IMG/VR virus record: IMGVR_UViG_3300035682_000017
Span: 17,704-81,703 of that record
Reading direction: 5' to 3' (one strand)
Length of the DNA: 64,000 nt
Source: a virus
The stretch's first letter is position 1, and every line of letters begins with the position of its first letter. A program made the position numbers and the translations under genes. The notes beneath the pieces are model-generated. The model did not search any database. It saw only the letters and a list, made by a program, of their open reading frames with translations, and was not told where the DNA came from. This document shows positions 17,171-40,480 of the stretch, piece by piece.

Positions 17171-17773
17171 ATGATAAGTTCTATTGGAATATTAAGACAT
17201 AAGGTTGTTGATCCAGGACCACCTGTTACAGGACAAGTTTTACAAATTGGTACAGGTACATCGTTGGTGTATTATGCTCCAAATAATTATAGTTTTAAAT
17301 ATTCAAAATCTGCTTTTATCTGGACTGCTGCAGAAATGGGTGCTGCTAAAACCATTAACAATCTTCTCTTTTATCTTAGAAGTTATGGTGCATTTCCAAA
17401 TTTTTCAATGCAAACATTAAAAATAGGACATGTTGCACAATCTTCTTTTGCTACAAGTAATCCTCCAATTAATTTATCAGATTTAACTATATCAGATTTA
17501 ACTACGGTTAAAAGTAATTTTACATATTTTTTTAATCAAAATAATTTATGGTGGCCCGTTATTTTTGATACAAATTTTGTTTACAATGGTACTTCAAATT
17601 TAATATTAATTTGGGAACATGATGCTAATGATTGGGTTTCAACAGCTGGTGGAGCAGATGGTGAAACTCAAGCAAATAAAGGAATAACTGCTGGAAGTAT
17701 GACAAGTGCTTCAACAATACCTGCAGTTGGAACTATACTTACAAAAAGACCAAATATTAAAATTGGTTATTAA
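17171..17773 (+). CDS. Putative fibre tip / adhesin-like beta-sandwich protein
   Basis: MISSIGIL N-terminus. IWTAAEMG, FDTNFVYNGTSNLILIWE and RPNIK resemble domains of Bacteroidota surface proteins. Confidence 0.55.
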   Translation: MISSIGILRHKVVDPGPPVTGQVLQIGTGTSLVYYAPNNYSFKYSKSAFIWTAAEMGAAKTINNLLFYLRSYGAFPNFSMQTLKIGHVAQSSFATSNPPINLSDLTISDLTTVKSNFTYFFNQNNLWWPVIFDTNFVYNGTSNLILIWEHDANDWVSTAGGADGETQANKGITAGSMTSASTIPAVGTILTKRPNIKIGY

Positions 17774-22957: not shown

Positions 22958-23629
22958 ATGACAACAATCGGTGAATGTGTATCAAGACTTCGTAGTAAAA
23001 TAAAAGCAAGAACAGAAGATGCTTTTGTTACAGACCGCTATCTCTATAGTGTATTCATTAGTTATGCTAAAGCTTTAATTAGAAGACAGGACAATGAAAA
23101 TAAAATAATGAGATATGATTCATTATTTGAACTTTTACCAATGGTTGATTTAATTGAAGTTGATAAAGCAGAAGCTAATTGTGCTGGTATTAAAACTGGA
23201 TGCAAAATAATGCGTACTAAAAATAAACTACCAAAAGTATTTCAAGGAAGCTTAGGTCCTATTTTTAGAAGTGTTGGACCTATTGATGGTTCAGATACAT
23301 TTCAACAAATTAATTCTGCCATCTATGTTGCAATGACAAGCTCAACTAATTTTAAATATAACAAGACTCACTACTTTTGGTATAGAAATGGTCATTTATA
23401 TTTTCCAGATATTAAATGGGTTGCTGTTCAAATTGAAGGAATGTTTGAAGAACCTGTAGATAAGTTTTGCAATCTAAATGATGTTGATTGTACAAACATG
23501 CAAGAGAAAGAATTAAATCTTCCAGAGTATTTAATTGCAGAAGCAGAACAAATGGCTTCTCAAGATTTGCTTACACCGGTTAAAATACCTAGTGATACAT
23601 CTGATGATCAACAAAACATACATAGATAA
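22958..23629 (+). CDS. Tail ring protein
   Basis: MTTIGECVSR, IMRTKNKLP, KYNKTHYFWYRNGHLYFP and LPEYLIAE motifs; synteny. Confidence 0.7.
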   Translation: MTTIGECVSRLRSKIKARTEDAFVTDRYLYSVFISYAKALIRRQDNENKIMRYDSLFELLPMVDLIEVDKAEANCAGIKTGCKIMRTKNKLPKVFQGSLGPIFRSVGPIDGSDTFQQINSAIYVAMTSSTNFKYNKTHYFWYRNGHLYFPDIKWVAVQIEGMFEEPVDKFCNLNDVDCTNMQEKELNLPEYLIAEAEQMASQDLLTPVKIPSDTSDDQQNIHR

Positions 23630-24552
23630 TGGCTTCATATAATTTACAATACAGAACTTATGACCAATTGTTGGCAGAGGTTCAATCTGATTTTAAAAAC
23701 TACTACCTTGAAGATTTTATTAATCCGCAAGAGTTCATTAAAGTTGCTAAAAGATGTAACCGTGAATTGGGTTTAAAGATATTTAAAACTCATGAAGCTG
23801 TTCTTGATGTAGAAAGAGGAAAAGCTAAACTTCCTAATAACTTTAATGTTTTAAATTTTGCATTCATTGTAGGCAAGTTTAAAAGAATTGAACCTGTTAT
23901 TTCAGGTACTCATACAGAACGTGTACCAGTTGGAACTAAATATGATCCAGGAGTTGGAGATCTTGTAATTTGTGCAGATCCAGTTGTAAATCCTGAAAAC
24001 ACATGCTCTACTTGTAACGTGTCTGTTACATCTTGTAGTTGTAATGTTCAACTTAATTGTAAAGGTGAGCAAACAATACTTGTTCAAAAACTTAAATATG
24101 AAACAAGAGTATGGGAAGAGTTTACACCAATTAGAATAATTGAAAATGGAGATGTTGTAGATATGAATTGTCCAAATAAAAAATGGCAAGTTTATAATTC
24201 TGCATACATTAAAGATAATTTCATTTATCCTTCTTTTCAAACTGGAAAGATTTATATAAACTATCAAGGTTTTTTAGAAGACAATGATGGAAACTTATTA
24301 GTTCCTGATCATGATCTATTAAATGAGTTTTATGAATATGCTATAAAACAACGTGTGTTAGAGAATATGATTATGAATGGTGAAGTTGTTAATCAAATGC
24401 AAATTCAATTGATTGAGCAAAGATTAAAAGCTGCAAGAAACAATGCATATTCATTAGTGAATACACCAGATTTTAATGAGTTAAGAAGAATATGGGAAGT
24501 TAATAGAAAAGCTCAATATTCTAATTATTACGACATGTTTAGAAGTATGTAA
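23629..24552 (+). CDS. Tail ring / tail tubular protein (P22 gp4-like position)
   Basis: GKAKLPNNF, YIKDNFIYPSFQTGKIYINY..DNDGNLLVPD..EFYEYAIK. Directly upstream of the muzzle gene. Confidence 0.75.
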   Translation: MASYNLQYRTYDQLLAEVQSDFKNYYLEDFINPQEFIKVAKRCNRELGLKIFKTHEAVLDVERGKAKLPNNFNVLNFAFIVGKFKRIEPVISGTHTERVPVGTKYDPGVGDLVICADPVVNPENTCSTCNVSVTSCSCNVQLNCKGEQTILVQKLKYETRVWEEFTPIRIIENGDVVDMNCPNKKWQVYNSAYIKDNFIYPSFQTGKIYINYQGFLEDNDGNLLVPDHDLLNEFYEYAIKQRVLENMIMNGEVVNQMQIQLIEQRLKAARNNAYSLVNTPDFNELRRIWEVNRKAQYSNYYDMFRSM

Positions 24553-24554
24553 TT

Positions 24555-27500
24555 ATGGCAAAGAAAAAAACAGCATCTGCATCAAGCAGCACATTTAAGT
24601 CTACTGCTACTTTTGATAAAGCAATGGTAACGGATGTAAATGATTATCATTTACCGGAAAACGCATGGACCTATGCACGTAATGCAATTAACAATTCAAG
24701 AAAGGGTGACATTGGTAAGTTATCTAATGAACCTGGTAATCAATTTTGTACTACTGCTCCATTTAATATAATTGGTTCAATACATATTGAAAAAGATATT
24801 TGGGCTGTATTTTCAACAAACAATTATCTATCAGAGATTGGTTTATTTGTTGAAGGTGAATGTTCATATACAAAACTTGTAAGAAGTACGTGTCTGCGCT
24901 TTAAAACAACAAACTTGATCATTGGAGTAGCTAAACCAAATGCATTTTGTAGTCATGAATTATTTTGGGATGATGGTATTAACCCTACTAGGTATATTGA
25001 CATAAATAAAATTCCATGGCTTGAAACATGTGAAGATGTAGATGGATGTAAAATCTGTGAACCAACTTTGGATTCTAATGATGAAAAAATTCTTGATTGT
25101 GAACAATTAAGATTAGAATCTATTTATAAAACTCCAACTGCAGTTGTTAAAAAAGGAGTTGGTATTGGAACATTAAACAATGGTACATATCATGTTCACA
25201 CGGCTTATTATGTAAATGAACAAAGAGTAACTGACTATACTACAATGTCAAATACAATTTCTTTATTTACACATGATAATGTTAATGGAAGTATTGATGT
25301 AGATATTAAAAATTTAGATACTAATATCTTTGATGACTACGAGTTAGTATTGGTATACACTGTAGCAGAGAAGACTGTTGCTAGGCATATTGGTATGTAT
25401 AGTACTGGTGTAACTAAAGTTTCTATTGATAATATAAATTTAGAATCTGGAGTTATTGATTCAAAACTTTTAGGTTACATTACACCTGTTCCAGATAAAT
25501 CAAAAGGAGTTTATTCTACAGGTAAATATTTATTGCGTGTAAGTCCAACTGATAAATTTCAGTTTAACTACCAGCCATTGGCAAATCAAATTAGAACTTT
25601 TTGGCAGTCTGTAGAATATCCAAAAGATTATTATAAAAATGGAGGCATTAATGTTGGTCACATGCGTGATGAAGTTTATACTTATTTCATACGTTGGATT
25701 TATAACACTGGTGATAAAACTCCTTCTTTTCATATTCCAGGTAGAGGTCCTGTTGATTATGTTTTAACAAATGATGATGGTTCTAAAGGTTCCACTTTAA
25801 AAGAAAATGATCCCCTTCCGTCTTCATTTGAAAAGAATGTAATTGAGGATTATACTCCTAAAGTGTTTGAAGTATTCAATACAGCTTACTTTACTAAATC
25901 TCCTAACACTCTTTTAGATGACGGTGGTGTTGTTATCCATGAAGGAAGAATGGGATACTATGAAAGTTTAGAATTATATCCAGATAACAATCCTCAAGTT
26001 TGGAATGCTAGTTCACATCTATGGTCTGATTCTGGTGATGATAATCATGACTTGTGTGGTAAACCAATCCGTCACCATAAATTCCCTGAAAATTCTTTAA
26101 ACTATTCAGGACTGTATTCTGATATTACTAATCACTATAATAAAACTGGTGATAAGATTAGAGTAATGGGAGTTAGGTTTGAAAACATTAAACCTCCAAA
26201 AGATAACAAGGGAAAAGTTATTAAGAACATTGTTGGTTATGAAATCTTACGTGGTAGTCGTGATGGAAACAGAAGTGTTCTTTACAAAGGTTTAATAAAT
26301 AACATGTTTGAATATGATCTTCCTTCTAAAATTACAAGTAGAAAAGGATTGTATGCAAACTATCCTTTTAATGATTTAAGACCAGATCCATTTATTTCAA
26401 AAAAGAAAACTAACTATGATACAGCAGGTGGTTTAAAAAATCTTGTACCAAATACAGCTTACAGTAAAAAACATTTTACTTTTAATTCTCCAGATGTATC
26501 TTTTGGTAGACCTTTTTTAAATGCTAATGAGTTAAAGATTTATGGTATTGCTCATGGTATTTCTTCTGGTAAATATGCAGAAGCTAGTGATCACCCTAAA
26601 CATAAATTTTATACAGATTTAGCTTTAGGTGTTGCTTTAATTGCTGGTGTTGGATATGCTATGGCTAAACAATTTGGTAAAAAGGTAAATACATATACTG
26701 GATGGCAAAAAAATTCTACTGCTTTACCTTGGAATGTTACTGGTACAACTGTAGCATTTACTGGAGGTACTGCTATTGGATATTTACCTAATCCTAAACC
26801 TACAGCTGCAGCTGCTGCTTTAGCTGCAGCAGATACTGTTAAAAATAATGCACTTAAAGGTTTAGGTATTCTTGATATATTTACTGGTACTAATACAAAA
26901 GAATTAGCACAAAAGGCTTATATTAAATCTACAGCTAGTGCTGCTGTAATGGGTTCGATGTATAGTTCTGCATCAAAGAATGAAGGATTTGATAATGTAG
27001 ATCAAACTCCAACTGCATTAAGAATGATGCAAGCAATTCCAATGTTCTTAACTAACATGCAAGATGGTGCTAATAGTACTTTGGAATTAATAAAAGCAGT
27101 TTCTCCTTACAATCAATTTGCTCATCAGTTTATTTCTAAATGTGAGTATGAAGAATATCAAGCTCCTAGTGCTAATAATAGAAGAAGAAAGATTGATGAT
27201 AGTAGATATACTACATCGCAGATGCAAGACTTTCAAAGTACTCACATAATTAATAATTTGTATAGACCAACTGGCGTTGTGTTTAATACATTTAAAAATG
27301 TTGAGAATACTGCAATTGCAGATGTATCGCGACCTGATAGATTATCTCAAATGGCTGACAATGATAAGTTTGAGTTTCAAAGAAGACGTGCTGCTTCTCA
27401 CTACGTTGCATTTAAAAATCCGGATAGAAGACAATATGGTCAGTTAGATTCTATTAAAATGATTCCTACCAAAAGTGAATATGTTGAAATTGATTTAACG

Positions 27501-29495
27501 CAGAAAACTTCTAAATCTCCGGTTATATTTGGTGGTGATACATACATTGGAAAATACTCTGAAAAGAATACTTTATTTTATTTTACTAACTGGTTAGAAT
27601 CGGTAATGTTAGATGGTGGCATTTTAGATTATACTAAATACATGATGTTTGATTACTCTTCCTTTTGGATGAATACTTCTGAATTTAACATCAATGAGTT
27701 TTATAAAAGTATTGGTGACGGTTTAGTTGCTGCCATGAAAACTTTAAAGTTTGCTACATTTTTTAAAACTATTAAAAGTCCTTCTGATTTTCATTGCTTT
27801 GATAGAAATGGTGGTACAGGATGGATGATGTTGAAAAATGCATACATGTATTTATTTAATTCAGGAGTTAGAAACTTTTTTGTTGAGTCCGAATTAAATG
27901 TTGATTGTAGAGATTATGAGGATGAGGATGCTAAAAAACATTATCCTATTGAATCAAACTTGTCTAATTTGTTTAACATGCGTACTATTAAAGCGGATAA
28001 CTTTTATAAATTAGATAGAAGTTTATGTGAGTCATTTTTACCGCATTCAAAAACTTCTTGGAGTACTCTTCTTGATACAAAGTATGATCCGACATTGTCA
28101 GAAACTTGTTATACTACAAGAGAGAATAGATTAATTTATTCCTTACCGCAAGAAACATTAAACAAAAAAAATAACTGGTCTGTATTTTTACCAAATAATA
28201 AAAAAGATTTTACAAGTAAGATTACAGCAATTAAACCTGTAGATAAAACAGGAGCCATGTTGTTTTTTCAAAATGAATCTCCAGCATTACTTCCAGGAGT
28301 TGATGAGTTACAAACTGGAAATGGAATCAAATTGATTGTTGGTGATGGTGGTTTATTTTCAAGAGAACTACAAAGATTAAGTCATACAGAAAGATCTATT
28401 GAATATGGTTCTTGCCAAGATGGTTTATCTGCTATAAATACACCGTCTGGTATATTTTGGATTAATGCAAACCAAGGAAAGATTTTTAACTACGCTGGTG
28501 GTTTAAAAGAAATCTCATTAAAGAATAATAGATTTTGGTTAAGTAAACATTTACCATTTCAGATATTAGAATCTTTTCCAAATTTTGATGGTGTTAATAA
28601 TCCTTTAACTGGAATTGGTTGTCAAAGTGTATATGATAATGAATACATGTTGGTTTACTTTAGTAAGAAGGATTACAAATTAAAAGATGAGCATAAAGAT
28701 AAACCGCATTCTTATGTTGGAAACGGTTTATTTATTGTTGATGGGTATAGTACTTTTATTGATAACCCTTTATATTTTGATGAGTGTTCCTTTACTTTAA
28801 GTTATGATGTAAAAAGTTCTGAATTTATTTCATATCATGATTGGTTTCCTGATTTAACTTTCAGCAGTAAGAACAACTTCCTTACAACAAAAGGTGCTAC
28901 AATCTGGAGGCATAATAAAACATGTCAGAAGTATTGTAACTACTATGGTATTGATTATCCATTTGAAGTAGAATTTCAATTAGATACAAAGTTTGCTGTT
29001 TCTACTATTAGAAACATTGAATACTATTTAGAAAGTTATACTTATGCTGATAACTGTTATGATAGATTACATTTACTTGATCATAACTTTGATGAAGCTG
29101 TTGTATATAATTCTGAACAATGTTCTGGTGTTTTAAGAATGAGAGTTGCTCCTAAAAACAATATTACTCAATTGCTACTCTATCCTAAAGTGTCTTACAG
29201 TTTTATAGAGATTTTATTTTCAAAAGAAGAACAGCAATATAGATTTAATCAGTTTTGGGATATAACAAGAAACAGAGGTGAGTTTCAAGATACCAATGAA
29301 GTTATGTGGAATACAGAAGCAAATGGTTATATTCGCGAATTAAATACAAAGTATCTTAATTATAAAAAGAATGCATTTCAGTTAAAGAAATTTAGACACT
29401 ATAACAGTAGGGTTTTACTTAAAAGAAATGTTTGTAATAATGTTGAGATGCTTGTAAATGTTGCGTTTGCTAACCAGCATTTATCACCTAGATAA
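24555..29495 (+). CDS. Muzzle / tail stabilisation protein (P22 gp10-like), 1646 aa
   Basis: LSNEPGN, MRDEVYTYFIRW, PIRHHKFP, IVGYEILRG, IFGGDTYIGK, FTLSYD..FISYHDWFP signatures of the crAss stabilisation protein. Confidence 0.85.
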   Translation: MAKKKTASASSSTFKSTATFDKAMVTDVNDYHLPENAWTYARNAINNSRKGDIGKLSNEPGNQFCTTAPFNIIGSIHIEKDIWAVFSTNNYLSEIGLFVEGECSYTKLVRSTCLRFKTTNLIIGVAKPNAFCSHELFWDDGINPTRYIDINKIPWLETCEDVDGCKICEPTLDSNDEKILDCEQLRLESIYKTPTAVVKKGVGIGTLNNGTYHVHTAYYVNEQRVTDYTTMSNTISLFTHDNVNGSIDVDIKNLDTNIFDDYELVLVYTVAEKTVARHIGMYSTGVTKVSIDNINLESGVIDSKLLGYITPVPDKSKGVYSTGKYLLRVSPTDKFQFNYQPLANQIRTFWQSVEYPKDYYKNGGINVGHMRDEVYTYFIRWIYNTGDKTPSFHIPGRGPVDYVLTNDDGSKGSTLKENDPLPSSFEKNVIEDYTPKVFEVFNTAYFTKSPNTLLDDGGVVIHEGRMGYYESLELYPDNNPQVWNASSHLWSDSGDDNHDLCGKPIRHHKFPENSLNYSGLYSDITNHYNKTGDKIRVMGVRFENIKPPKDNKGKVIKNIVGYEILRGSRDGNRSVLYKGLINNMFEYDLPSKITSRKGLYANYPFNDLRPDPFISKKKTNYDTAGGLKNLVPNTAYSKKHFTFNSPDVSFGRPFLNANELKIYGIAHGISSGKYAEASDHPKHKFYTDLALGVALIAGVGYAMAKQFGKKVNTYTGWQKNSTALPWNVTGTTVAFTGGTAIGYLPNPKPTAAAAALAAADTVKNNALKGLGILDIFTGTNTKELAQKAYIKSTASAAVMGSMYSSASKNEGFDNVDQTPTALRMMQAIPMFLTNMQDGANSTLELIKAVSPYNQFAHQFISKCEYEEYQAPSANNRRRKIDDSRYTTSQMQDFQSTHIINNLYRPTGVVFNTFKNVENTAIADVSRPDRLSQMADNDKFEFQRRRAASHYVAFKNPDRRQYGQLDSIKMIPTKSEYVEIDLTQKTSKSPVIFGGDTYIGKYSEKNTLFYFTNWLESVMLDGGILDYTKYMMFDYSSFWMNTSEFNINEFYKSIGDGLVAAMKTLKFATFFKTIKSPSDFHCFDRNGGTGWMMLKNAYMYLFNSGVRNFFVESELNVDCRDYEDEDAKKHYPIESNLSNLFNMRTIKADNFYKLDRSLCESFLPHSKTSWSTLLDTKYDPTLSETCYTTRENRLIYSLPQETLNKKNNWSVFLPNNKKDFTSKITAIKPVDKTGAMLFFQNESPALLPGVDELQTGNGIKLIVGDGGLFSRELQRLSHTERSIEYGSCQDGLSAINTPSGIFWINANQGKIFNYAGGLKEISLKNNRFWLSKHLPFQILESFPNFDGVNNPLTGIGCQSVYDNEYMLVYFSKKDYKLKDEHKDKPHSYVGNGLFIVDGYSTFIDNPLYFDECSFTLSYDVKSSEFISYHDWFPDLTFSSKNNFLTTKGATIWRHNKTCQKYCNYYGIDYPFEVEFQLDTKFAVSTIRNIEYYLESYTYADNCYDRLHLLDHNFDEAVVYNSEQCSGVLRMRVAPKNNITQLLLYPKVSYSFIEILFSKEEQQYRFNQFWDITRNRGEFQDTNEVMWNTEANGYIRELNTKYLNYKKNAFQLKKFRHYNSRVLLKRNVCNNVEMLVNVAFANQHLSPR

Positions 29496-29542: not shown

Positions 29543-32500
29543 ATGGCGAAGAAAGTATTAGATAATAAACCTACATTGGATGAATACATTAAGGTGTATG
29601 AACAATCTCTGGCTTTAGAGAATTCTTTAAAATCTAATCCTGATTATAAGTTAACTGCGGCTTTTCCAGCTAAAACAGATTGGTTAAAAAATTTACGTAT
29701 TGCTAGTGATAATTATGAAGCTGACACTAATCCAAAGCATCCATATTTTTCACGACTATTAAGTAATCCTTATCTATCAAAAGAAGATAAAGCACAAATA
29801 CTAGAAAACTCTAAAAAATATACACCGGGCTTTTATTATAAAGAAGAAACTCCAAATACTTTTTATCAAAGAGAATTATCTTTTGGTAATATTAATGATG
29901 AGTTTCCAATGGCATATTACGATACAAGAATTAAACCTACTTTACAAGTTGTTTATCAAAGAGAGGGAGCTGGAGAATTACAAGATCGTGTTCAAATGTA
30001 TAAGTATGATCTTCCTGTTTTAAGAGAACAAGTTGTTAAATTATTTCCAGAAGCAGAAGAAAAACTAAAAGCTGTAGAACAAAAGTTTAATAAACCTGTT
30101 GCTACTACTCAAGCTGCACAACCAGTACAATCAGGATACCCTTCTGGGTATGCTCCATATAGTTTGTATGGAAAAGTTCTTGATCCAAAAGTTTATGGCT
30201 ATGGAGAAAGTACAAGTGGTACTCCTATTCAAGTAGCTCAATTTTTAGATACTTATGGGTTGCAAAGAAAAATGAAAGAGTATTCAAAAGATAATTCTTT
30301 TCCATGGTCAGCACAAAAAGAAACTACTTTTGATAATGGAGGTATGGTTTTAAAACGTGACATACAAAAAAATGCAGCTTTAGTTCCTAAACAAAAAACT
30401 GTTACTCTTGATACACATGATAATGAATATTCCAATACACCTAAAATTAGAGATGCGGATAAAACTTATTATGATGATACAACTGGTACAATTTATTTAT
30501 CTCCGGAAGATGCAAAAAATAATGATGTAATTAAAGATCTTGAAGCTCAACATTATAAGTTACAAAAATACAAAGACTTGGATAAACAAGGTGTTGCATT
30601 TAAAGAAAAGAATAGAGTTAAATCTTTTCAAAGTGTTCCTTTTGATAGCAATTTTAATTTTAACTTTAATACAGATACAAAACAGGAAGCTGATAATAGA
30701 AAACAAATTACTGGAGTTAATACTTCTTTAGATGTTAATACTCCATTTGGTTTAAGTGTTGGTGCAGATGCATCATTTAAAAAAGATGCAGATAGAGTTT
30801 TGTTTGCTTTAAAAAATCAAAGAGTTGGGTTGCAAGGAAATGCAGGTAATTATAGTTTTGGTGTTAATGCAAATAACAGTTTTGATGAAAATGGTAAACC
30901 TTTATTCAATCCTAATACTACAGCATTTATTCAAAAAAATAATTTTAGAGTAGAAGGTAATAATAGTTTTCAAAAACAAGAAGATGGTACTTACAGTTTT
31001 AATCCAAATGCAACATTTTCTTATGATGATGGAAGAAATTCGGTAGCAGTAAAGCAAGAGTTTGCAAAAGGTGAAGATGGTAAATGGAAAACTACACCTA
31101 GCTTTTCTGGAAATTTTAAAAGAGGAAATTGGGATTTTGGTCAAAGTGTTTCTCCTTTTAGAGATGAAGAAGGTAATCTTAATACAGAGGCATCTACTTC
31201 AATAGGATATACTAGTCCAACTGAAAGATTTAATGTTGGTGCTACTAGAAACACTTCTAGTTTTAATAACGAATCTCCACAATTTAATAGTGGAAATCTT
31301 AATATGTCTTATATGCAACCTGTTGGTAGAAATGTAAACTTAAATGTTTCTGGTTCCAATGAGTTTACAAAAGAAGATATGTTAAATCCTAATTTAAAAC
31401 TAGGAGTTAATTATGGTGGAAAAAATAATCCTATGTCAATTAACATAGGTAATGAATTTAAAGAAGGATCATTATTTAATCCAACTGTAGGATTTAGATA
31501 CAAATTAAAAAAAGGCGGTCCTATAAAAAAAGAATTGCCTGATGATTATAATAATTTTTTAAACTTTAATAAAACTCTTCCTTCAAATTTACAAGATCCA
31601 AATTTTGAATATGGTAATCCTAATCATTATGACTTGTATGGTTTATGGGAAAGTTTAGGAAAGTCTAAAGATTTTAATCAAGCTGTAAAAAATAATCCTG
31701 ATTGGCAACCTGATGAAGAAGATGGACTATATCATGGATTTACTGTTAATACAAATGGTGTATTTTTAAAACCTGCAAACCATCCAACTACTTATAAAGA
31801 AGTTATGATGGCTAGTTTAAATACAGATCCTTATTTTAAGGAAAATACAATTATAATGAACGAGGATGGTAGATTGCAATATGTACCACGTAAAAAAAAT
31901 GGAGGAACTATGAATGAGCAATTAATGCAACAAGTGCAACAGATGATTGAACAAGGCGCATCTAAAGGAGATGTAGCTCAACAATTAATGGCAGCTGTAC
32001 AAGAAGGACAGTTAGACCAAGAATCAGTTATGCAAGTATTTCAGCAATTAGGAATTACTGAACAAGATTTACAACAAGTACAGCAACCGCAACAACCTTC
32101 TGAAGCTCAACAACAAGTTATGGCTTTAGGTGGTATGCCTAGATTTCCTAATGGAGGACAACCTTCTCCAGAAGAAATGGCTATGATGCAACAGCAACAA
32201 GCTCAACAACAAGGTGCGCCTCAAGAGCAACAACAAGGAGGTGGTGATCAAATGCAACAAGTAATGCAAATGGTTCAGCAAATGGTTCAACAAGGTGCAC
32301 AACCTGTTGATATAGTGCAAGCCTTACTGCAAAATCAATTACCACCTGAAGCAATTATGCAAGTGCTTACTCAAATGGGTATGGAACCTGAAGAAGCGCA
32401 AGCAACTATTCAGCAAGTAATGCAAGGTGGTCAACAACAACCACAACAGCAACAAGGTCCTGGTGAAGAACAAGTAGAAGGTGAATCTTCCAATCCTGAA

Positions 32501-34159
32501 GAAGAAGAAGAGGAGCAACAAGAACTTCCTCAACAAGCTTTTGGTAGTCAATTGAAAAAATTAATTTCAAATCACTCTAAAAGTGAACTTACTTCTGAAG
32601 TGGATTCTGACATTCATTCTGCAACTAGAAATTTAAAATTTGCAAATACGCTTAGAAAGAATGCACATGAGGCAATGCTAAATGAAGCTTTTGATTTTCC
32701 TAGTTTAAAAAATAATTCTAACTCTAACTCTTTACCACAAGCTGCTTGGGGGGATGATTTGAAAGCACTTCAAGATAAATATAAAGATGATGCTGAATAT
32801 AAAAAATATTTAGATGAGCAAAAGGCTTATACTGATTGGAAAACAAATCAAGGACAACAAGGTCAAGGACAAGGGCAACCAGGTGTAAATAATATTTATT
32901 ATGTAAATGATCCTAGAGGTGGTGGTTCACAATCAACTTATCAAAATCCTGGAGCATTTTCAAGATTATTTAATAACTCTGGTTGGACTTCAGATAGATT
33001 AGGTTTTGATTTTTCAAATCTTCCTTTATCCAATGATCCAGATGCTAAATACAATGTAACTGCTATAACTCCTGAAAAAGGAATTTTGGGTAGAAGAAAA
33101 GTAAGGTATGATATTAATTGGGGAACAACTCCTAATGATGCTTCAACAACTGGTACAGGTGCAACAGGTACAACTCCTGCGGTTGAACCTTTATCTGATA
33201 GACAAATAAGAAGAGGTAGAAGAAAATTTGATAATGAATATGAAGATGCTTTAGATGAAAAAATTGACGGTGTTAATAAAAATCAATCAAAAGCAGACCA
33301 ATTTACTGATAAGTGGAATGCAGCTAACGACTTAATAAATTCTAAAGAGTCTACTAAATTTAAAGATCAAGTAAATCCATATGATGCACCTAACCCACTT
33401 CTTGCTGAAAAGTATTTTGAAGGTGATGACAATATTTCCAGAAGAGATATTAAAGGTTATTATAAAGAAGCTTATCCGAATATGCCTCGTAAAGATGTAA
33501 GACAACTAGCAAGAGAATCTGCTGAAAACAAAGTGGTTATTGGTACTAATAGTAACTATGAAATTCCAGCAAGTCAAGATGATGCAAACGGTATAGGTGA
33601 CTTCTTTAGAAATACTGCTTATAATGTTCGTACTGGTATTAGTAATGCATTTGGTCATTTAAGTAATAAATCTTACGGAGGTTTAATTCAAGCTGGTCCA
33701 GGTATTAACATGGAAGATCCAATGGTTAGAGGATATAGTACAGATGAAGATAAACCTGCTACAGCTTTAAATCAAAAAGGAAGCGTTACTGTAAAAGAAA
33801 AGTTTAAATTGGATAAGGATGCTTTTGCAGATGCTTCTAAATTAACTGCGGATACAATCTCTTCTAGCTTAAATAGAGCAGATTTACAAGAAAGAGCAAA
33901 TGATCCTGAACAATATTCAGCTGTGAATAGATTCAGTCCAACTGCTTATTCACATGCTTCAAGCGGTTTATATGATGAGCAAGGTAATTTTAAACCTAAC
34001 AACGTAGGTGCTACAACTATATTCAATCCAACAAATGCAGAAGGTAGTTTTTATAAACAATTGTTTGCACTTGGTGGAGGTGTAAATAAAATAACTTTTA
34101 CAGATGAAGAGTTACAAGTTTTAAAAGACGCAGGTTATAATACTGATGACTTAATCTAA
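29543..34159 (+). CDS. Modular virion cargo (internal/ejected) protein, 1538 aa
   Basis: Follows the muzzle gene. Modules are separated by xxxGG motifs and include a beta-barrel-like segment and Gln/Met-rich repeats. Confidence 0.65.
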   Translation: MAKKVLDNKPTLDEYIKVYEQSLALENSLKSNPDYKLTAAFPAKTDWLKNLRIASDNYEADTNPKHPYFSRLLSNPYLSKEDKAQILENSKKYTPGFYYKEETPNTFYQRELSFGNINDEFPMAYYDTRIKPTLQVVYQREGAGELQDRVQMYKYDLPVLREQVVKLFPEAEEKLKAVEQKFNKPVATTQAAQPVQSGYPSGYAPYSLYGKVLDPKVYGYGESTSGTPIQVAQFLDTYGLQRKMKEYSKDNSFPWSAQKETTFDNGGMVLKRDIQKNAALVPKQKTVTLDTHDNEYSNTPKIRDADKTYYDDTTGTIYLSPEDAKNNDVIKDLEAQHYKLQKYKDLDKQGVAFKEKNRVKSFQSVPFDSNFNFNFNTDTKQEADNRKQITGVNTSLDVNTPFGLSVGADASFKKDADRVLFALKNQRVGLQGNAGNYSFGVNANNSFDENGKPLFNPNTTAFIQKNNFRVEGNNSFQKQEDGTYSFNPNATFSYDDGRNSVAVKQEFAKGEDGKWKTTPSFSGNFKRGNWDFGQSVSPFRDEEGNLNTEASTSIGYTSPTERFNVGATRNTSSFNNESPQFNSGNLNMSYMQPVGRNVNLNVSGSNEFTKEDMLNPNLKLGVNYGGKNNPMSINIGNEFKEGSLFNPTVGFRYKLKKGGPIKKELPDDYNNFLNFNKTLPSNLQDPNFEYGNPNHYDLYGLWESLGKSKDFNQAVKNNPDWQPDEEDGLYHGFTVNTNGVFLKPANHPTTYKEVMMASLNTDPYFKENTIIMNEDGRLQYVPRKKNGGTMNEQLMQQVQQMIEQGASKGDVAQQLMAAVQEGQLDQESVMQVFQQLGITEQDLQQVQQPQQPSEAQQQVMALGGMPRFPNGGQPSPEEMAMMQQQQAQQQGAPQEQQQGGGDQMQQVMQMVQQMVQQGAQPVDIVQALLQNQLPPEAIMQVLTQMGMEPEEAQATIQQVMQGGQQQPQQQQGPGEEQVEGESSNPEEEEEEQQELPQQAFGSQLKKLISNHSKSELTSEVDSDIHSATRNLKFANTLRKNAHEAMLNEAFDFPSLKNNSNSNSLPQAAWGDDLKALQDKYKDDAEYKKYLDEQKAYTDWKTNQGQQGQGQGQPGVNNIYYVNDPRGGGSQSTYQNPGAFSRLFNNSGWTSDRLGFDFSNLPLSNDPDAKYNVTAITPEKGILGRRKVRYDINWGTTPNDASTTGTGATGTTPAVEPLSDRQIRRGRRKFDNEYEDALDEKIDGVNKNQSKADQFTDKWNAANDLINSKESTKFKDQVNPYDAPNPLLAEKYFEGDDNISRRDIKGYYKEAYPNMPRKDVRQLARESAENKVVIGTNSNYEIPASQDDANGIGDFFRNTAYNVRTGISNAFGHLSNKSYGGLIQAGPGINMEDPMVRGYSTDEDKPATALNQKGSVTVKEKFKLDKDAFADASKLTADTISSSLNRADLQERANDPEQYSAVNRFSPTAYSHASSGLYDEQGNFKPNNVGATTIFNPTNAEGSFYKQLFALGGGVNKITFTDEELQVLKDAGYNTDDLI

Positions 34160-34164
34160 TTACA

Positions 34165-36381
34165 ATGAGAAATTTAAAACAAAATATTAATACTACTTTA
34201 AAACCAGAAGATAGAAAAAAATCTAATGTTGAAGTAGAAAAAGGAGAAATTGTATTTACTAAAAAGGATCCTAATTCAAACATGTTTGAGCTTTATTTAG
34301 CTGGTGGAAAAAAACATGGTTCTGGAGGAACGCCATTAAATTTACCAGTAGGGGATGGTGAAAATAAAGGATCATCTTTTATATTTTCAGATAGATTGAA
34401 AGTTAAAGATAAAGATGCTTTAGATTTTTTTGGATTTGAAACCAATAAGAAAATAACAATAGCTGATTTAATCAGACCATTGGTAGATGTTGTAAACAAA
34501 TCTAAATCTATTTTGTTAGATAAAAATGCAGATAAAATCTCTAAAGGTTCTGCAGAAAAAAATCTTGAAAATGCTAGATTTAAAATTGATGCTGCAAAGT
34601 TATATCAAGAATCTCTTAAAGGGATGAAAGATGTTCCAGAAGCAGAATCATTTTTTGAAAAAACAGCATTAAGTCCAGAAAAGGTTTTTGGAATTGATCC
34701 TAAACAACAAGAGCAAGCACATGAAGCTATCAAAATGGCTTTAGGTGGAATGATGCAAAATGCAAACTCACCGAGTTTTGATTTTGGTGGAGATCCTCAA
34801 ATACATTATTATGAAGATCCTGAACCAGAATATTCACCATCTCCATTCTTTATGGCAGAAGGTGGACAACTTCCTAAATATCCAGGTGGAACTTCTGTTA
34901 GAAGAAGAAAAACTATTGTGTTTGATTCAAAAAGTGGACCAGGTACAGTTAGTCAATGGGTTAATAGTGATGCAAAAAATAAAGAATTGGATGAAAAAGC
35001 AAATGCTATTATTGAAGCTGGTATTGCAAAAGGTGAAATTAAATATAATGAAAACACTGGAAACATTGAGCTTTTAGGAAACTTTTCTCCGACCTTTGCT
35101 GAAAGAATGATTATTACAAAAGTATTTAATCAAGCTGGTGAAAAAAAACTTGCCACTACTCAATTCAATGTAACTAATCAAAAACCTGGAAGATACTCTA
35201 AAGCAAATTCAAAAGGTACGTTAGAAGGAACTGGTTCATTTGTTGCAGGATTTACTCCTGAAATGTATGAGCAAAAATATATGTATTCAAAAGCTCTTGC
35301 TGAAGGTAAATCTGAAGAGGAAGCATTAAAATTTGCGGATGCACATAGATCTACAAAAGAATCAAGAGCAGAGTTTACTAAGTATTTAGGACTAAACATT
35401 CCAGATGCAGATTTAGCAGATGACAAATGGTATGATAAAAACTATGATAAAATTACTTCTGGTATTGAAGCAACATTTCCAAAAGATCAATATAGAAAGT
35501 ATAAAGGTAATGATGGTACTTCAGGGTTTGACCACTTTGATGCAATTGGATTTAAAGCTAAAAAACCTATAGAAAGTTTACCAGGAACTAGTAATGATAA
35601 AGATACTTCTGTTACAACTGTTGATCATGTTAATCCTAATGTGGGAGCTACTCCTTTTGGTTATAGACAAGAAGATATTAATTTATTAAATAGAGGTTTA
35701 GAACGTAAAAATGAAATAGGTGCATTGCTTCCTATACAAGCATCATTTAATGCTGTCATTCCTAAAGTGCCATACTATTCTCCTGAAAGAGCTCTTGCTT
35801 CAAATAAAGAAGACATGGCGCAAGCTATTGCTGGAATTAAAACTTTTTCTGATCCTAATGCGGCAGCTGCTAATGCAATGGCTGTATACAATGAAGGCTA
35901 CAAAAAATCCATGAATATAATTGACAATGTTTCTGATAAGAATATTAATCAAGAATCTATTTATGAACAAAGCAAAGCACAAATTCTAAACCAGTTTAAT
36001 CAAGCTGATGCTGCTTCTGATGTACTCTATACAGATAAGGTAAATTCTACAATGCAAAATGTTAGAGATGCTTTAAGTACAGCCAAAGATGCGATTGTAG
36101 GTTATAAGAATTCAGCACTTACTAATGCTTCTGATATTTACAATGTTAACCAAATGCAAGAGCACTATAAGAAGAATCCTGTTACTGGTAAGATTGACTT
36201 TGCTCCAGGATACGATCCATTTGCAGCATCTAAAAGTTCTACTACTACTGCGTATGATGAGTTCAATTCAATTAAAAGTAAATACAAAAATATGCCTGAT
36301 GAACTTGCTGTTAAACTAGTAGCTATTCAAATGGGTAAAAACACAGATAAGACGGTAGCAGATCCAGATGAAAAAATTTAA
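34165..36381 (+). CDS. Cargo protein (crAss cargo protein 1-like N-terminal domain)
   Basis: NVEVEKGE...GKKHGSGGTPLNLP...SFIFSDRLKV motif, a cluster of xxxGG motifs, helical C-terminus. Confidence 0.65.
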   Translation: MRNLKQNINTTLKPEDRKKSNVEVEKGEIVFTKKDPNSNMFELYLAGGKKHGSGGTPLNLPVGDGENKGSSFIFSDRLKVKDKDALDFFGFETNKKITIADLIRPLVDVVNKSKSILLDKNADKISKGSAEKNLENARFKIDAAKLYQESLKGMKDVPEAESFFEKTALSPEKVFGIDPKQQEQAHEAIKMALGGMMQNANSPSFDFGGDPQIHYYEDPEPEYSPSPFFMAEGGQLPKYPGGTSVRRRKTIVFDSKSGPGTVSQWVNSDAKNKELDEKANAIIEAGIAKGEIKYNENTGNIELLGNFSPTFAERMIITKVFNQAGEKKLATTQFNVTNQKPGRYSKANSKGTLEGTGSFVAGFTPEMYEQKYMYSKALAEGKSEEEALKFADAHRSTKESRAEFTKYLGLNIPDADLADDKWYDKNYDKITSGIEATFPKDQYRKYKGNDGTSGFDHFDAIGFKAKKPIESLPGTSNDKDTSVTTVDHVNPNVGATPFGYRQEDINLLNRGLERKNEIGALLPIQASFNAVIPKVPYYSPERALASNKEDMAQAIAGIKTFSDPNAAAANAMAVYNEGYKKSMNIIDNVSDKNINQESIYEQSKAQILNQFNQADAASDVLYTDKVNSTMQNVRDALSTAKDAIVGYKNSALTNASDIYNVNQMQEHYKKNPVTGKIDFAPGYDPFAASKSSTTTAYDEFNSIKSKYKNMPDELAVKLVAIQMGKNTDKTVADPDEKI

Positions 36382-36430
36382 ACAATTTTTAGTTAATTTT
36401 TAATTAATATATTTACAAAAACATTATTAC

Positions 36431-38290
36431 ATGGCAACTTTTAATCAAAAAGATATAGCTTCTACTTTGCAACCTAGCAAACCTAACTTGCAGTTTGACT
36501 TGCAGTTACTACAAGCTAAGGAAAGTTTGTATAAGGCTAACAAAAAAAAAGTTAGTGAGCTTTACGGTTCTATTTTAGATTCTGATGTTACAAGAACAGA
36601 CAGTCAAGAAAAAAAAGATGAGTTCTTCAAACAAATTTCTTCTGATATAAAATTACTTGGTAGTGTGGATTTCTCATTGGATTCAAATGTTGATGAGGCA
36701 AAAAATATGTTCAAATCTATTTATACAAATAAACAGGTTTTGAAAGATATGGTCTGGACAGAAAACTTTAAAAACCAATTACAAGCTGGTCAAAATTTAA
36801 AAGGATGTATAGATCCAAAAAAATGCAACGGTCAATGGTGGGAAGAAGGTGATAAATACATGGCTTATAAAAAACAAGAATTTATAAATGCCAGTAAAGG
36901 AGACATGCTAAATTTTTCTGATGTAGAATATGTTCCATATATAGACATTACTGCTAAAGGATTAAACATTGCTAAAGAAAAAAAAATTAGTGTTAAAAAA
37001 GATAAAGTAGTTGGTAATTATATTGTTACAACTACCAATGGAGTAAACGGAATTTCTGCATATACTGCTTTATTTGGTGCATCAATTGGAAGTGATCCTT
37101 CTGTAAAAGCAATGTATAAAGCTAAGTCTTATGTAGATAGAATGGATGGTGTTTACTCACTTATGCAAAACGGAGAAGCTGCATCATTTGAAGAAGCTCA
37201 AGTAAAGTTTTATGAAACAAAGAGTGAGGAGCTTGATCAAAAATTACAAGAGAAAGCGGATGTTCTTAATGTGGAAAGAGATTATCTAAAAGAAAAAGTT
37301 GATGAGTATGAAACTGCATATAAGAATGGAAAGTTAAAAGAAAATACACCTGAATGGGAAAAAGCATTGGAGGTAAAAGAACTATATGCTAATTCTTTAC
37401 GTATTGAAGAATATTTTGACTTAGCTGATAATGCAAAATTAAATATGAACAGGCAGTCTAATTTAAACTTCTTAAATGAAAGTTATGATACAAGAGCTGG
37501 TATTAATTTAATGTTTGATGATATTACTAAAGTTGCTTCCGCAATTTCAAATGCAAGTGAGGAAACAGAATTAACAGAGTCAAAATTTGCTTTAGAGAAA
37601 ATGAAATTTAATAATGATGTTTCTTTAGAACAAACAAAACTTGCTAATAAAAAGAATTACGCATTATGGAAAAAAGAAAACAACATTACTGATAGTGATG
37701 GAGATGGAGATGGAACAACTCCTGCTAAAGAAGAAAAAGCTAAAAATGATAGAGCTGCAGTTGCTAATAAAGCAGATGCGGCAAAAAATCTTGTTTCTTC
37801 TTTTAGTTTACAAGATGAAGTTAAAAAACAATATAAAGATATATATGGTTCTGATTTACCAGCTGACACAAAAGGTTTTCAAGCAGGTTCTCCTGAAGTA
37901 AAAGCTTATAAAAAAGCAGTTAAGGCTGCTAAAAATGAACTTATTAAATTAAAACGTGAGGCTAATGATGTAATTATAAATAGTAAAAAAAGAACTATGC
38001 CTTTACCATATCCTGAAGCTGTAACTCAATCTCAACTTTATTCGACATCTAATATTTTAAGTGATGATCAAGTAGATCAAGTTACAAACTGGATGCAAAA
38101 ATCAAATCTTTTAAATTCTGAAGGAACGCCTGTTGGAAAAATTGGTAAAAACTTTATGGGTTTATTAGAAAACGGTGATTTTAATAAATACTTTACACAA
38201 GGACTTACTATTTATGGATTGTGGAATATTTATAAAAAGAAAGGTGATTTGCAAGATGTAAAAGATTATTTAGGAGAAGAAGAAGAATAA
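36431..38290 (+). CDS. Helical cargo/ejection protein (619 aa)
   Basis: Helical/coiled-coil composition, position in the cargo block, YVPYID motif. Confidence 0.55.
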   Translation: MATFNQKDIASTLQPSKPNLQFDLQLLQAKESLYKANKKKVSELYGSILDSDVTRTDSQEKKDEFFKQISSDIKLLGSVDFSLDSNVDEAKNMFKSIYTNKQVLKDMVWTENFKNQLQAGQNLKGCIDPKKCNGQWWEEGDKYMAYKKQEFINASKGDMLNFSDVEYVPYIDITAKGLNIAKEKKISVKKDKVVGNYIVTTTNGVNGISAYTALFGASIGSDPSVKAMYKAKSYVDRMDGVYSLMQNGEAASFEEAQVKFYETKSEELDQKLQEKADVLNVERDYLKEKVDEYETAYKNGKLKENTPEWEKALEVKELYANSLRIEEYFDLADNAKLNMNRQSNLNFLNESYDTRAGINLMFDDITKVASAISNASEETELTESKFALEKMKFNNDVSLEQTKLANKKNYALWKKENNITDSDGDGDGTTPAKEEKAKNDRAAVANKADAAKNLVSSFSLQDEVKKQYKDIYGSDLPADTKGFQAGSPEVKAYKKAVKAAKNELIKLKREANDVIINSKKRTMPLPYPEAVTQSQLYSTSNILSDDQVDQVTNWMQKSNLLNSEGTPVGKIGKNFMGLLENGDFNKYFTQGLTIYGLWNIYKKKGDLQDVKDYLGEEEE

Positions 38291-38312
38291 ATAACAATTA
38301 AAATATTATAAA

Positions 38313-40469
38313 ATGACTGATTTTTTAAAACGTGTGCAACAAAGAATTTCTGAAAAAAATGAAGGTTCTATACCAACACCAGCAGTTTCTAGTTCTAAGC
38401 CAGCAGTTTCTACAGCAACTGTTTCTACTGCATCAGCAACATCAAATAAACCTGTTGTAAAATCAGATTGGCTTAAAGATGTACAACCATTAGCAGATCA
38501 ATTAAAAACTGGTTTAAATTATGAAGAACATGGTTACATTATGCGTGCTTATTCAGGTAGGTATGATGGTATAGCTAATGATCCAAATACAGATGCTGAA
38601 TTAAAAAAAACATTAAAGGCTTTAAAACATGGTGCTGTAACTCTTGCTGCTGGATTAAAAACAAAAAATGATAAACTCTACCAACAAGGTGCTTCTGAAA
38701 CATTTAATAATTGGCAGAAAGTACAAGAGTTAACTGTTAATGAAAACTCTGCATATAAAGTTGAATCAGATAATTTTAAATTATCAACTAAAAATCAAGC
38801 TGCAAAAAATAATGAACATCCTGTTTTTTATACAGACAAGCAAGGTAATGTTGAATCTACAGTTAAAATTACTGGAGAAGATAATATTAATAAAGAAATT
38901 TCTTGGTCTTATTTTTCACAAAAAGGAATGAATAACAGATGGCAAAGTAGTATTAAAAATCAAATTAAACCTGTATTAACTAATTGGTATGATCAATCAA
39001 CAAAATCACTTTACGGAAAGAGTGTAAATGCTGATGATAAATATAATGCCTATAATTTAAGTAAAGATTTACTTCAACATATTGCAGAACATGGAGATGA
39101 GAATAAAGAAAATAAAAAAGAAGCAAATGCAATTATAAAACAAATGTGGAAAGAGAAAACCATTGAAGGTAAAATTGAAGTTATTAAAAATAATAGAGCT
39201 GCAATTAAAGAACTTTCTGGAAAACTTGGATACTATGGTTCCACTTCTATATATAATAGACACGTTGATAAACTTAAAACAAAAGAGTTATATCATTCAG
39301 ATGATTTAGACAATATCAAAGAATCAATCAATGGCTATAGTGAATTTAAAAATTTTGATAAAAAAGTAAAAGCTGATGTTGCAACAAGATTAAAAAATTC
39401 TAATCCAAATGGAGATCCTGCATTTAATTATTTATTTAATGAAGACAATAATTTAAGATCATATTCAGAGTTTAAAAAATTATATTACAATAAAATTCCA
39501 TTAGATAAACTTACAGATGCTGGATACAACGTACAATATGCTTCTCAACAAACATATGATGCTGCTTATAACGAAGCTTCTGCAAAAACATATTCTGAAC
39601 TTACAAAACAATACAGGCTTGGTTATAACAATGTTGATATAAAAAACTTTAGCAATGATACCTTTTATGTTAATGGTATTGGTAATGAAGTTGTAAAAAT
39701 TGGAGGATATGAAAGTATTGATTTTACTTTAAGAGGTGATAACAAAACTATTAAAAACATTGGTAAATCAAACAAACAAAACTATGCTCAAAATGTTTTA
39801 AATAAAATTTTTGATGTAGATGGTAATCTTGAAAAAGATGTTGTAATTAAAAAAGATGTAGATGGTAATTTTGAAAGATACTTTGATTATGAATCATCAA
39901 CAAAAGATAAAGTTGGTTCTTCTGGAAAACCTACTGCTAAAAATTTAAAAGAAGCTTTTAATGAAGGTAGTCGTGCTGCATATTCAGAACCGCAAGACAT
40001 GGATGTGTTTAAATCTTATTTTAAAAATCCAAGACCTGATGTTGACATTTTATTTATTAAGCATACTGGTAATCAAAATTATTCTTCTTATGTTATAAAA
40101 GATAGAAAGACAAAAGAAACTTTACAAATGTATGTTCCAAAAAGTAGATTAAAAGATGACTACTTTTTTAAGAATACAGACATAGATAAATTTGAACATA
40201 ATTTTAGAATTACCGGTGAAAAAGTTTTGCCAGAAATTAAAGATAAAAGACCAGATGGCTCTGATATTTTTATGGGCCAGCCTTCTATTTCTATTAACAA
40301 TAAAAAAGGTACAAAAGAACTGCATTATACACTTGTTAATGATGAAGGAAAACCTGTTGATAAAGTGGTTACACTTGGATCAAATGAATCTATAAACATT
40401 AAAGAGGCTAATGATTATGCTAAAAAAAGATTAGCTGAAATTGTTAATTACTATAATACCAACAATTAA
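38313..40469 (+). CDS. Hypothetical cargo-region protein (718 aa)
   Basis: Long ORF with a low-complexity S/T/A/P N-terminal linker. No recognisable family. Confidence 0.5.
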   Translation: MTDFLKRVQQRISEKNEGSIPTPAVSSSKPAVSTATVSTASATSNKPVVKSDWLKDVQPLADQLKTGLNYEEHGYIMRAYSGRYDGIANDPNTDAELKKTLKALKHGAVTLAAGLKTKNDKLYQQGASETFNNWQKVQELTVNENSAYKVESDNFKLSTKNQAAKNNEHPVFYTDKQGNVESTVKITGEDNINKEISWSYFSQKGMNNRWQSSIKNQIKPVLTNWYDQSTKSLYGKSVNADDKYNAYNLSKDLLQHIAEHGDENKENKKEANAIIKQMWKEKTIEGKIEVIKNNRAAIKELSGKLGYYGSTSIYNRHVDKLKTKELYHSDDLDNIKESINGYSEFKNFDKKVKADVATRLKNSNPNGDPAFNYLFNEDNNLRSYSEFKKLYYNKIPLDKLTDAGYNVQYASQQTYDAAYNEASAKTYSELTKQYRLGYNNVDIKNFSNDTFYVNGIGNEVVKIGGYESIDFTLRGDNKTIKNIGKSNKQNYAQNVLNKIFDVDGNLEKDVVIKKDVDGNFERYFDYESSTKDKVGSSGKPTAKNLKEAFNEGSRAAYSEPQDMDVFKSYFKNPRPDVDILFIKHTGNQNYSSYVIKDRKTKETLQMYVPKSRLKDDYFFKNTDIDKFEHNFRITGEKVLPEIKDKRPDGSDIFMGQPSISINNKKGTKELHYTLVNDEGKPVDKVVTLGSNESINIKEANDYAKKRLAEIVNYYNTNN

Positions 40470-40480
40470 AATTTTTTAAA

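Follow-up and report, generated by a model that had tools for sequence, protein, structure and literature searches.

We analysed a 64,000-nucleotide stretch of viral DNA (IMG/VR record IMGVR_UViG_3300035682_000017, positions 17,704 to 81,703; hereafter the window, meaning this whole stretch) and found that one of its genes encodes a modular protein of 1538 amino acids (aa) carrying a conserved all-beta segment that is predicted to fold like a bacterial outer-membrane beta-barrel. The source record comprises 81,703 bases and is rated 68% complete. The window covers the virion module of a crAss-like phage: Pfam placed the Crassvirus major capsid protein in the open reading frame (ORF) at 3492-5108 and tail ring protein 1 in ORF 23629-24552, and the muzzle ORF at 24555-29495 also matched PHROG 37948, a virion structural protein (E 5.7e-60). 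The 1538-aa ORF begins 48 bases past the muzzle gene, giving the order ring 1, muzzle, ORF, and giant ORFs lie 3' of it from 40481 onward. An identical gene order is found in the related contig L001, whose identity to the window is 80% for ring 1, 69% for the muzzle, 61% over the module for the barrel-carrying ORF, and 55% and 50% for the next two ORFs. The features of the locus are listed below, with the predicted local distance difference test (pLDDT) given by block where a part was modelled.

24555-29495, + strand: muzzle protein gene, 1646 aa (Pfam crAss_MUZ PF25731, E 3e-26; score 92.3 bits, cut-off 27)
29543-34159, + strand: modular ORF of 1538 aa (protein P0001), located where crAss001 has cargo protein C1 (gp45), from the ORF list, its translation and gene order
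30329-30343, + strand: FDNGG junction preceding the module, aa 263-267; GG lies 0-2 residues ahead of the module start in all eight proteins compared
30344-30637, + strand: small N-terminal sub-module, aa 268-365; three short predicted strands, then a long helix into the barrel (block pLDDT 65-78)
30653-31501, + strand: barrel-like domain of 18 predicted antiparallel beta-strands, aa 371-653 (AlphaFold2 model strands at model residues 104-386, block pLDDT 56-93)
30854-31015, + strand: internal hairpin repeat by local alignment, aa 438-460 (SFGVNANNSF..FNPNTT) against aa 467-491 (NFRVEGNNSF..FNPNAT)
31484-31507, + strand: beta-signal-like octet TVGFRYKL in the last strand, aa 648-655, fitting the beta-signal consensus
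31508-31519, + strand: KKGG junction 3' of the barrel, aa 656-659 (FRY-x-[LF]-x-x-GG in 8/8 proteins)
31520-31906, + strand: optional 129-aa module ending in KKNGG, aa 660-788, missing in homologue P0002

An earlier note on this DNA, made from the letters alone, had pointed to an outer-membrane-type barrel inside this ORF. All of the strand motifs that it quoted (GLSVGADASF, YSFGVNANNSF, FNPNATFSY, PSFSGNF, STSIGY, FNVGAT, GNLNMSY and NLKLGVNY) are in the translation, as is PTVGFRYKL followed by KKGG. The span that it gave, 30640-31519, starts one base ahead of a codon; read in frame, the segment runs from 30641 to 31519 and encodes aa 367-659, or 293 residues. As the note had stated, there is no signal peptide: the module is internal, beginning 366 residues into the ORF, and across the whole ORF the 19-residue Kyte-Doolittle mean peaks at 0.73. 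Nor did we find a candidate helical membrane anchor: in this ORF and the three that follow it, all 19-residue windows stay below a Kyte-Doolittle mean of 1.6 (maxima 0.49-1.09). The 294 residues of the module include 46 Asn, 30 Gly, 27 Phe and 26 Ser, with no Cys and no His. The sub-module in front of it (aa 268-365) bears the conserved motif TLDTHDxEYS...TGTIYLSPED and is kept in six of seven homologues, P0009 being the one without it. Downstream of the optional module, a Gln-rich region at about 31907-32560 (aa 789-1005) contains two similar, helical-looking copies of QQVQQMI(E)QGA...QALL...; it is conserved in the homologues P0002, P0003, P0004 and P0006, and no family matched it.

Predicted fold of the all-beta module

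We modelled aa 268-659 with AlphaFold2 from an eight-row alignment (A1) of this segment and seven homologues. With P0001 as the query, the mean pLDDT was 71.3 and the predicted template modelling score (pTM) was 0.51, and four of the five models had a pLDDT of 69.9-71.3. The model consists of a small beta/alpha part (strands at model residues 34-52), a long helix (residues 60-89) and then 18 antiparallel strands of 8-17 residues, which are connected by 2-5 residues on the side of the termini and by 2-10 residues on the opposite side; no plug was predicted. When P0009, which is 32% identical over the module, was the query, the model had 20 strands (pLDDT 68.7), with an insertion of about 50 residues accounting for one added hairpin. 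Both models are next-neighbour antiparallel meanders with an even strand number (18 and 20).

Structure comparison placed these models among membrane barrels. Foldseek gave 13 matches in the PDB at E values of 1e-3 or below, all bacterial outer-membrane barrels save one mitochondrial Tom40; the AlphaFold and Foldseek check that the earlier note had suggested came out in favour of the barrel-type fold that it had proposed. A VIA-align search over 48,161 representative chains, of which the 50 best matches were listed, returned transmembrane barrels in 50 of 50 cases for the P0001 model (Z 11.0-15.8), as did a second look over Foldseek's top 1000 chains (again 50 of the 50 listed, Z 13.7-15.9). 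In the first search, the matches included Cir (Z 15.8, root-mean-square deviation (rmsd) 7.3 Å over 280 aligned residues), VDAC1 (Z 15.1, 10.3 Å, 245), MtrB (Z 15.0, 6.7 Å, 282) and PapC (Z 12.6, 5.5 Å, 270). For the P0009 model, all 50 listed matches were likewise transmembrane barrels (Z 11.7-16.2), FptA (Z 16.2) and MtrB (Z 15.7) among them. The nearest named clusters in the ESM Atlas were OMP_b-brl, SlipAM, YaiO and YjbH (scores 0.83-0.85); every neighbour there that bears a family name belongs to an outer-membrane barrel family, and we take these as leads only. Among predicted viral structures (BFVD), the best match was the unnamed A0A2I7SAB4 (E 3.1e-6), with A0A6J5L4P1 (E 9.4e-4) also near the top, and a few stand-alone phage 'porins' among the best matches, none of which is of the cargo type. 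These viral entries, such as 'OmpC porin [uncultured Caudovirales phage]' and 'Phosphate-selective porin O and P [Siphoviridae sp.]', are similar to the module in being predicted barrel folds in viral records, but they are separate proteins of 285-612 aa with a porin annotation rather than modules in a cargo position, and their TM-scores to it are 0.28-0.36.

In 13 of the 18 strands, one face has a mean Kyte-Doolittle value of at least 0.4 and the other of -0.5 or below; the polar faces are rich in Asn, Ser, Thr and Gly, and by count contain about as many acidic as basic residues. In the model, the face turned to the lumen would be polar (Asn, Ser and Gly-rich) and the opposite face moderately hydrophobic. 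We measured strand regularity as the share of 10-residue windows in which the period-2 hydrophobic moment exceeds the helical one, taking the best 293-aa segment of each of 109 proteins (85 Escherichia coli K-12 proteins, eight outer-membrane proteins (OMPs) among them, and 24 window ORFs). The best segment of P0001 starts at aa 359-361 and ranks first on the Wimley-White scale and second on the Kyte-Doolittle scale, beside ElfC, BamA and HtrE. At the level of sequence, this rank shows unusually regular amphipathic strands, not membrane residence. The hairpin repeat reported in the earlier note also holds, with a local alignment score of 56 against a mean of 38.3 (standard deviation 4.4) and a maximum of 53 in 60 shuffles.

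The last strand resembles a beta-signal, for which the consensus in PMC10945584 is polar-x-G-x-x-[aromatic/hydrophobic]-x-[aromatic/hydrophobic]. TVGFRYKL matches this consensus, with a full fit in seven of the eight aligned proteins and Y-x-[LF] in all eight. In its strict form, with an aromatic third-last residue, the pattern occurs once in the 1538 aa, at this octet, and 19 times in the 20,596 residues of the window ORFs. The strand is also the best conserved of the barrel (mean column identity 0.88, compared with 0.69 for the barrel as a whole and 0.78-0.88 for the last four strands), so both its consensus fit and its conservation bear out the earlier proposal of a beta-signal-like ending.

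Compared with bacterial OMPs of 18-26 strands (Cir (2hdf), FimD, PapC, MtrB, Occ/OprD and maltoporin) and with VDAC and Tom40, the module is predicted to share an up-and-down antiparallel arrangement in which the strands are long and even in number, the turns next to the termini are short, the side facing the lumen is polar and the last strand resembles a beta-signal. It differs from these OMPs in that it lacks a signal peptide, belongs to no OMP sequence family and has neither a plug nor long loops at the surface or constriction, its longest connection being 10 residues; in addition, it sits inside a phage protein, superposes poorly on them (rmsd 5.5-11 Å) and may not be closed. Structure prediction supports an outer-membrane-barrel-type fold for aa 371-653; the 50 listed structural neighbours are all closed barrels, whereas the module is only a candidate for closure between its first and last strands.

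Relatives of the module and the GG junctions

A phmmer search with aa 340-670 against 1.84 billion representative sequences gave seven matches at E values of 1e-3 or below, of which P0003, P0005, P0008 and P0009 were kept, and a word-indexed search gave six matches. P0007, present in both sets of matches, is a fragment of ORF 29543-34159 itself and was dropped as a relative; from the phmmer search, P0010 and P0011 (E 4.2e-5 and 6.6e-4) were dropped as Thr/Asp-rich tandem-repeat proteins that match in 5-6 short stretches. The module is uncommon and is kept in seven other full-length proteins, at identities of 96% (P0002), 57-63% (P0003, P0004, P0005 and P0006), 39% (P0008) and 32% (P0009). A search of IMG/VR yielded one locus, and none of 50,697 phage records matched the ORF by megablast or, at 1e-5, by tblastn. 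We found no free-standing bacterial homologue by phmmer, by the word-indexed search or by a profile search of proteins of 191-704 aa. The sole match in that profile search, P0012 (309 aa, from a contig of 12,427 bases), is a copy of the module that diverges and then stops after strand 10, probably owing to a frameshift or assembly error in a related phage. Searching the PDB by sequence gave nothing meaningful, and the profile search there gave one chance match (E 6.4). Sub-threshold matches to N-glycanase_C, SoxZ, DUF7360 and Serpulina_VSP in Pfam, PHROGs and NCBIfam were judged to be noise.

The module occupies different positions in these proteins, starting at residue 17 in P0003 and P0004, 141 in P0009, 253 in P0006 and P0008, 266-268 in P0002 and P0001, and 703 in P0005. 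On both sides it is flanked by GG in all eight proteins. Aa 660-788 are absent from P0002, which is 94% identical, and the gap is bordered on both sides by K[KN]GG; moreover, the C termini of P0005 and P0008 match aa 784, one residue ahead of the second junction, so that the 129-aa module is C-terminal in these two proteins. Because GG is found in 8/8 proteins, because an indel is bounded by K[KN]GG and because natural C termini fall at a junction, the sequences indicate that GG is a true module border.

The earlier note had gone further and proposed that processing at this GG frees the barrel. The junction is real, but cleavage found no support: the 81.7-kb record (68% complete) contains no match to Peptidase_C39, C48, S78 or ClpP. 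Cleavage at GG is possible but would not be required by a membrane-barrel model. In the searched text of PMC10172136, which describes crAss001, words beginning with 'cleav' and the word 'proteolytic' are absent, and our literature searches turned up no paper describing a beta-barrel delivered by virions or ejection proteins that are processed at Gly-Gly.

Gene position and a possible role in ejection

In crAss001, gp45 follows gp44 in gene numbering, and one part of it is in the tail while another is on the portal. It is expected to come out first and, by means of a predicted helix, to help to build a channel across the membrane; that the cargo proteins gp45 and gp46 form this channel is only suggested (PMC10172136). 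The 1538-aa protein is similar to gp45 in that its gene lies directly past the muzzle gene and in being a large protein of several parts. By contrast, gp45 has a predicted N-terminal transmembrane helix and its resolved parts are helical, whereas the protein described here is without such a helix and has a 290-aa all-beta module.

The corresponding gene in Cellulophaga phage phi4:1, gp041 (L005, 18431-20650), which also comes after a muzzle homologue, encodes a virion protein confirmed by mass spectrometry that has a Phage_lysozyme2 domain (E 5.1e-32). It has no sequence similarity to the ORF 29543-34159 protein (best BLASTP E 0.62). Within the family of the module itself, P0005 (1226 aa) has a YkuD L,D-transpeptidase domain at residues 270-423, upstream of the barrel (E 1.7e-5; score 25.9 bits, cut-off 23.4), which suggests a peptidoglycan-directed activity in the same protein family. 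Given the lysozyme domain in phi4:1 and the YkuD domain in P0005, the slot after the muzzle gene appears to hold envelope-acting ejected proteins, a class to which the ORF 29543-34159 protein would be assigned by its position; likewise, it is gene order alone that would place this protein in virions. The window ORFs at 34165 and 36431 have weak similarity to phi4:1 gp040 and gp039 (E 0.005 and 0.026), which suggests that they correspond to these genes.

A comparable job has been proposed for T7 gp14, P22 gp7 and DEV gp73, each viewed as a first ejected protein that inserts in the outer membrane to begin a DNA conduit (PMC10925440). DEV gp73, a nonameric protein of 17.7 kDa, forms pores in bilayers, and the outer-membrane pores of ejection proteins covered in that paper are helical. 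These proteins are small and alpha-helical and form oligomeric rings, unlike the module here, which is a predicted single-chain beta-meander inside a 1538-aa protein. The module may act like the helical pore proteins, but with an all-beta model and no hydrophobic 19-residue window it is not a member of their group.

The stretch was found in lake-water and freshwater metagenomes (20 runs from 13 studies), with at least half of the sampled words present in 16 of the 20 runs, one of which may be the source sample; the runs listed as holding it gave no RNA evidence for it. The nearest cultured relatives of the muzzle gene, at 24-28% identity, are from phages of Cellulophaga and Flavobacterium and one phage of Leptolyngbya, and one homologue of the ORF 29543-34159 protein is assigned to a Bacteroidota bin. 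These relatives and the sampled waters point to a freshwater bacterium of the Bacteroidota as the probable host.

Elsewhere in the window, the tail-fibre region (12038-13519 and 15360-17168) matches Fib_succ_major at E 1.8e-18 and a collagen triple-helix repeat at E 1.7e-10, and a 2OG-Fe(II) oxygenase domain of the AlkB type (E 1.4e-10) lies at aa 3715-3871, near the end of the 4109-aa ORF 46896-59225. A glycine-rich hydrophobic stretch, IGLGIATGGLGLLGSGGII, at 40976-41032, corresponds to aa 166-184 of the 2137-aa ORF 40481-46894. At 1.59, its 19-residue Kyte-Doolittle mean exceeds all others in the five ORFs scanned past the muzzle gene (29543-46894), and no other comes near 1.6; the stretch could be a membrane-active element of that protein.

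We conclude that aa ~366-659 form a genuine, conserved and swappable domain of what is, by inferred packaging, an envelope-acting virion (cargo or ejection) protein. The explanation that we tentatively favour is that the module is a barrel that is ejected, goes into the membrane and takes the part played in T7-like and N4-like phages by helical outer-membrane pores. The protein would wait in the tail and capsid, unfolded or folded only in part, and would exit through the muzzle before the DNA. The barrel module would then insert into the outer membrane of the host, either spontaneously from outside or from the periplasm with the help of the host's barrel-assembly machinery (BAM), which would read the conserved last strand. 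Once inserted, it would serve as an anchor or make the outer-membrane section of the ejection conduit. Cleavage would not be needed, because the termini sit on the short-turn side, as in bacterial OMPs, and the flanking modules could remain in the periplasm. OmpA, for example, keeps a periplasmic domain attached to its barrel. In P0003 and P0004, the module begins near the N terminus (residue 17), which in crAss001 gp45 is the tail-located end that is proposed to leave first. The steps from packaging in the virion to ejection and entry into a membrane, and the role of the module, are all ones that we infer. The interpretation in the earlier note is partly supported: the fold, the beta-signal-like strand and the GG junction are borne out by prediction and sequence, whereas presence in virions, outer-membrane insertion and the three roles that it named (DNA or protein conduit, superinfection-exclusion factor or BAM decoy) are conjectural.

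Competing explanations and their implications

Several findings count against a membrane-resident barrel that is ejected from the virion. Foldseek TM-scores were low (0.23-0.42), and the model superposed better on 18-19 consecutive strands of barrels with 22-26 strands (5.5-8.9 Å; PapC 5.5 Å, FimD 6.3-6.5 Å, MtrB 6.6-6.7 Å and Cir 7.3-7.8 Å) than on barrels that have 18-19 strands (the Occ family, maltoporin and VDAC; 10.1-10.7 Å). The first and last strands are the least confident (block pLDDT 56-68), and both models rest on the same shallow alignment. Given the better fit to larger barrels and the eight aligned rows, the predicted sheet could be open or flattened, or the model could be imprecise. 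The hydrophobic faces have modest mean Kyte-Doolittle values (about 0.4-2.6), and five of the 18 strands are without clear two-sidedness. The period-2 measure puts soluble fimbrial chaperones high and OmpF only 26th-40th, and a dyad-count test, for which 85 E. coli K-12 proteins and 24 window ORFs served as calibration, failed to tell OMPs apart from soluble proteins and was uninformative. No OMP family was at or near threshold in Pfam or NCBIfam for any of the eight members, and a loose form of the beta-signal pattern is common, with 87 matches in 20,596 residues, or 1.24 per 293 aa. No sequence link to gp45 was found, with no PHROG match and no tblastn match at 1e-5 among the 50,697 phage records. 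Finally, the insertion route is a problem, as an ejected protein would meet the lipopolysaccharide leaflet from outside, whereas BAM works from the periplasm.

Some of these findings would also be expected of a soluble or virion-internal all-beta domain, acting in packing, as a plug or scaffold, or in periplasmic binding, with the barrel look being a generic long-strand meander produced by a shallow alignment. We regard this as unlikely, albeit a serious contender. The high rmsd (5.5-11 Å) and low TM-scores to every barrel fit such a domain, as do the modest hydrophobic faces, the lack of an OMP family match, the high moment ranks of soluble beta-rich chaperones, and the weak sub-threshold matches to SoxZ and N-glycanase_C (19.1 bits against a cut-off of 25). 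However, three VIA searches with two models each listed 50 matches that were all membrane barrels, with no sandwich, solenoid or propeller among those listed. In addition, 18 strands of 8-17 residues with turns of 2-10 residues leave no space for a second sheet or core, and the strongest conservation falls on the beta-signal-like last strand.

A more specific form of the membrane-barrel reading is a phage-delivered porin, in which the cargo would be threaded unfolded into the envelope and host BAM would assemble a plug-free and nearly loop-free 18-strand barrel as the DNA conduit, with cassettes of different sizes swapped among crAss-like phages at the GG junctions. The radius of a barrel is given by R = b/(2 sin(pi/n) cos alpha). 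For a closed module of 18 strands with a shear number of about 20, the Calpha radius would be ~16-17 Å and, in the absence of a plug or long loop, the lumen ~2-2.5 nm, just the width of double-stranded DNA. We consider this version doubtful; if true, it would be the first case of a beta-barrel serving as the conduit for DNA ejection and of a BAM substrate that reaches the cell from outside.

It is also conceivable, though rather improbable, that the module is an incomplete barrel, an open C-shaped sheet that closes with partners (further copies, other cargo modules or a hybrid with host BamA) to give a multi-chain pore of much greater width. The model is curved in a way that suits barrels of 22-26 strands better than those of 18-19, which would agree with an open sheet, as would the low confidence of the two edge strands; in crAss001 the smaller cargo proteins, C1 included, are present in up to 12 copies per virion (PMC10172136). 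By contrast, there is no direct evidence of self-association, and an even strand number with an indel of one hairpin unit (18 against 20 strands) is typical of single-chain barrels. A two-copy complex prediction of the barrel part gave no answer (score 0.00, mark 0.42) and speaks neither for nor against binding.

Less probable again is a BAM decoy or jammer, in which the ejected, unfolded module would offer its beta-signal to host BamA or BamD and stall OMP assembly, weakening the envelope or excluding other phages without forming a conduit. This would make sense of the conserved beta-signal-like strand; peptides with a beta-signal inhibit BAM in vitro (PMC10945584), and a 2026 preprint reports protein antibiotics that inhibit BAM through beta-signal mimicry (10.64898/2026.09.25.754295). 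One strand would suffice for this purpose, whereas the module conserves 18 strands with two-sidedness and a hairpin-unit indel, and the few copies expected per virion would face the many BAM complexes of a cell. Least probable is a beta-groove that handles lipid or lipopolysaccharide, like those of LptD/LptA or AsmA/TamB, and bridges or disturbs the envelope without a pore, because although the sheet is amphipathic and LptD is among the matches (8h1r, Z 12.3, rmsd 7.0 Å over 272 residues; 5iv8, Z 11.7, with the P0009 model), the LptD matches cover its 26-strand barrel, and no LptA, TamB or other groove protein is among the 50 listed per search.

How crAss-like phages pass through the envelope of the Bacteroidota is an open question, and the idea of a barrel module that is ejected and carries a BAM-type signal offers a concrete answer to consider. 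If this idea is true, phage entry would be tied to the barrel-assembly machinery of the host, and the module may represent a new way to open or grip the host outer membrane.

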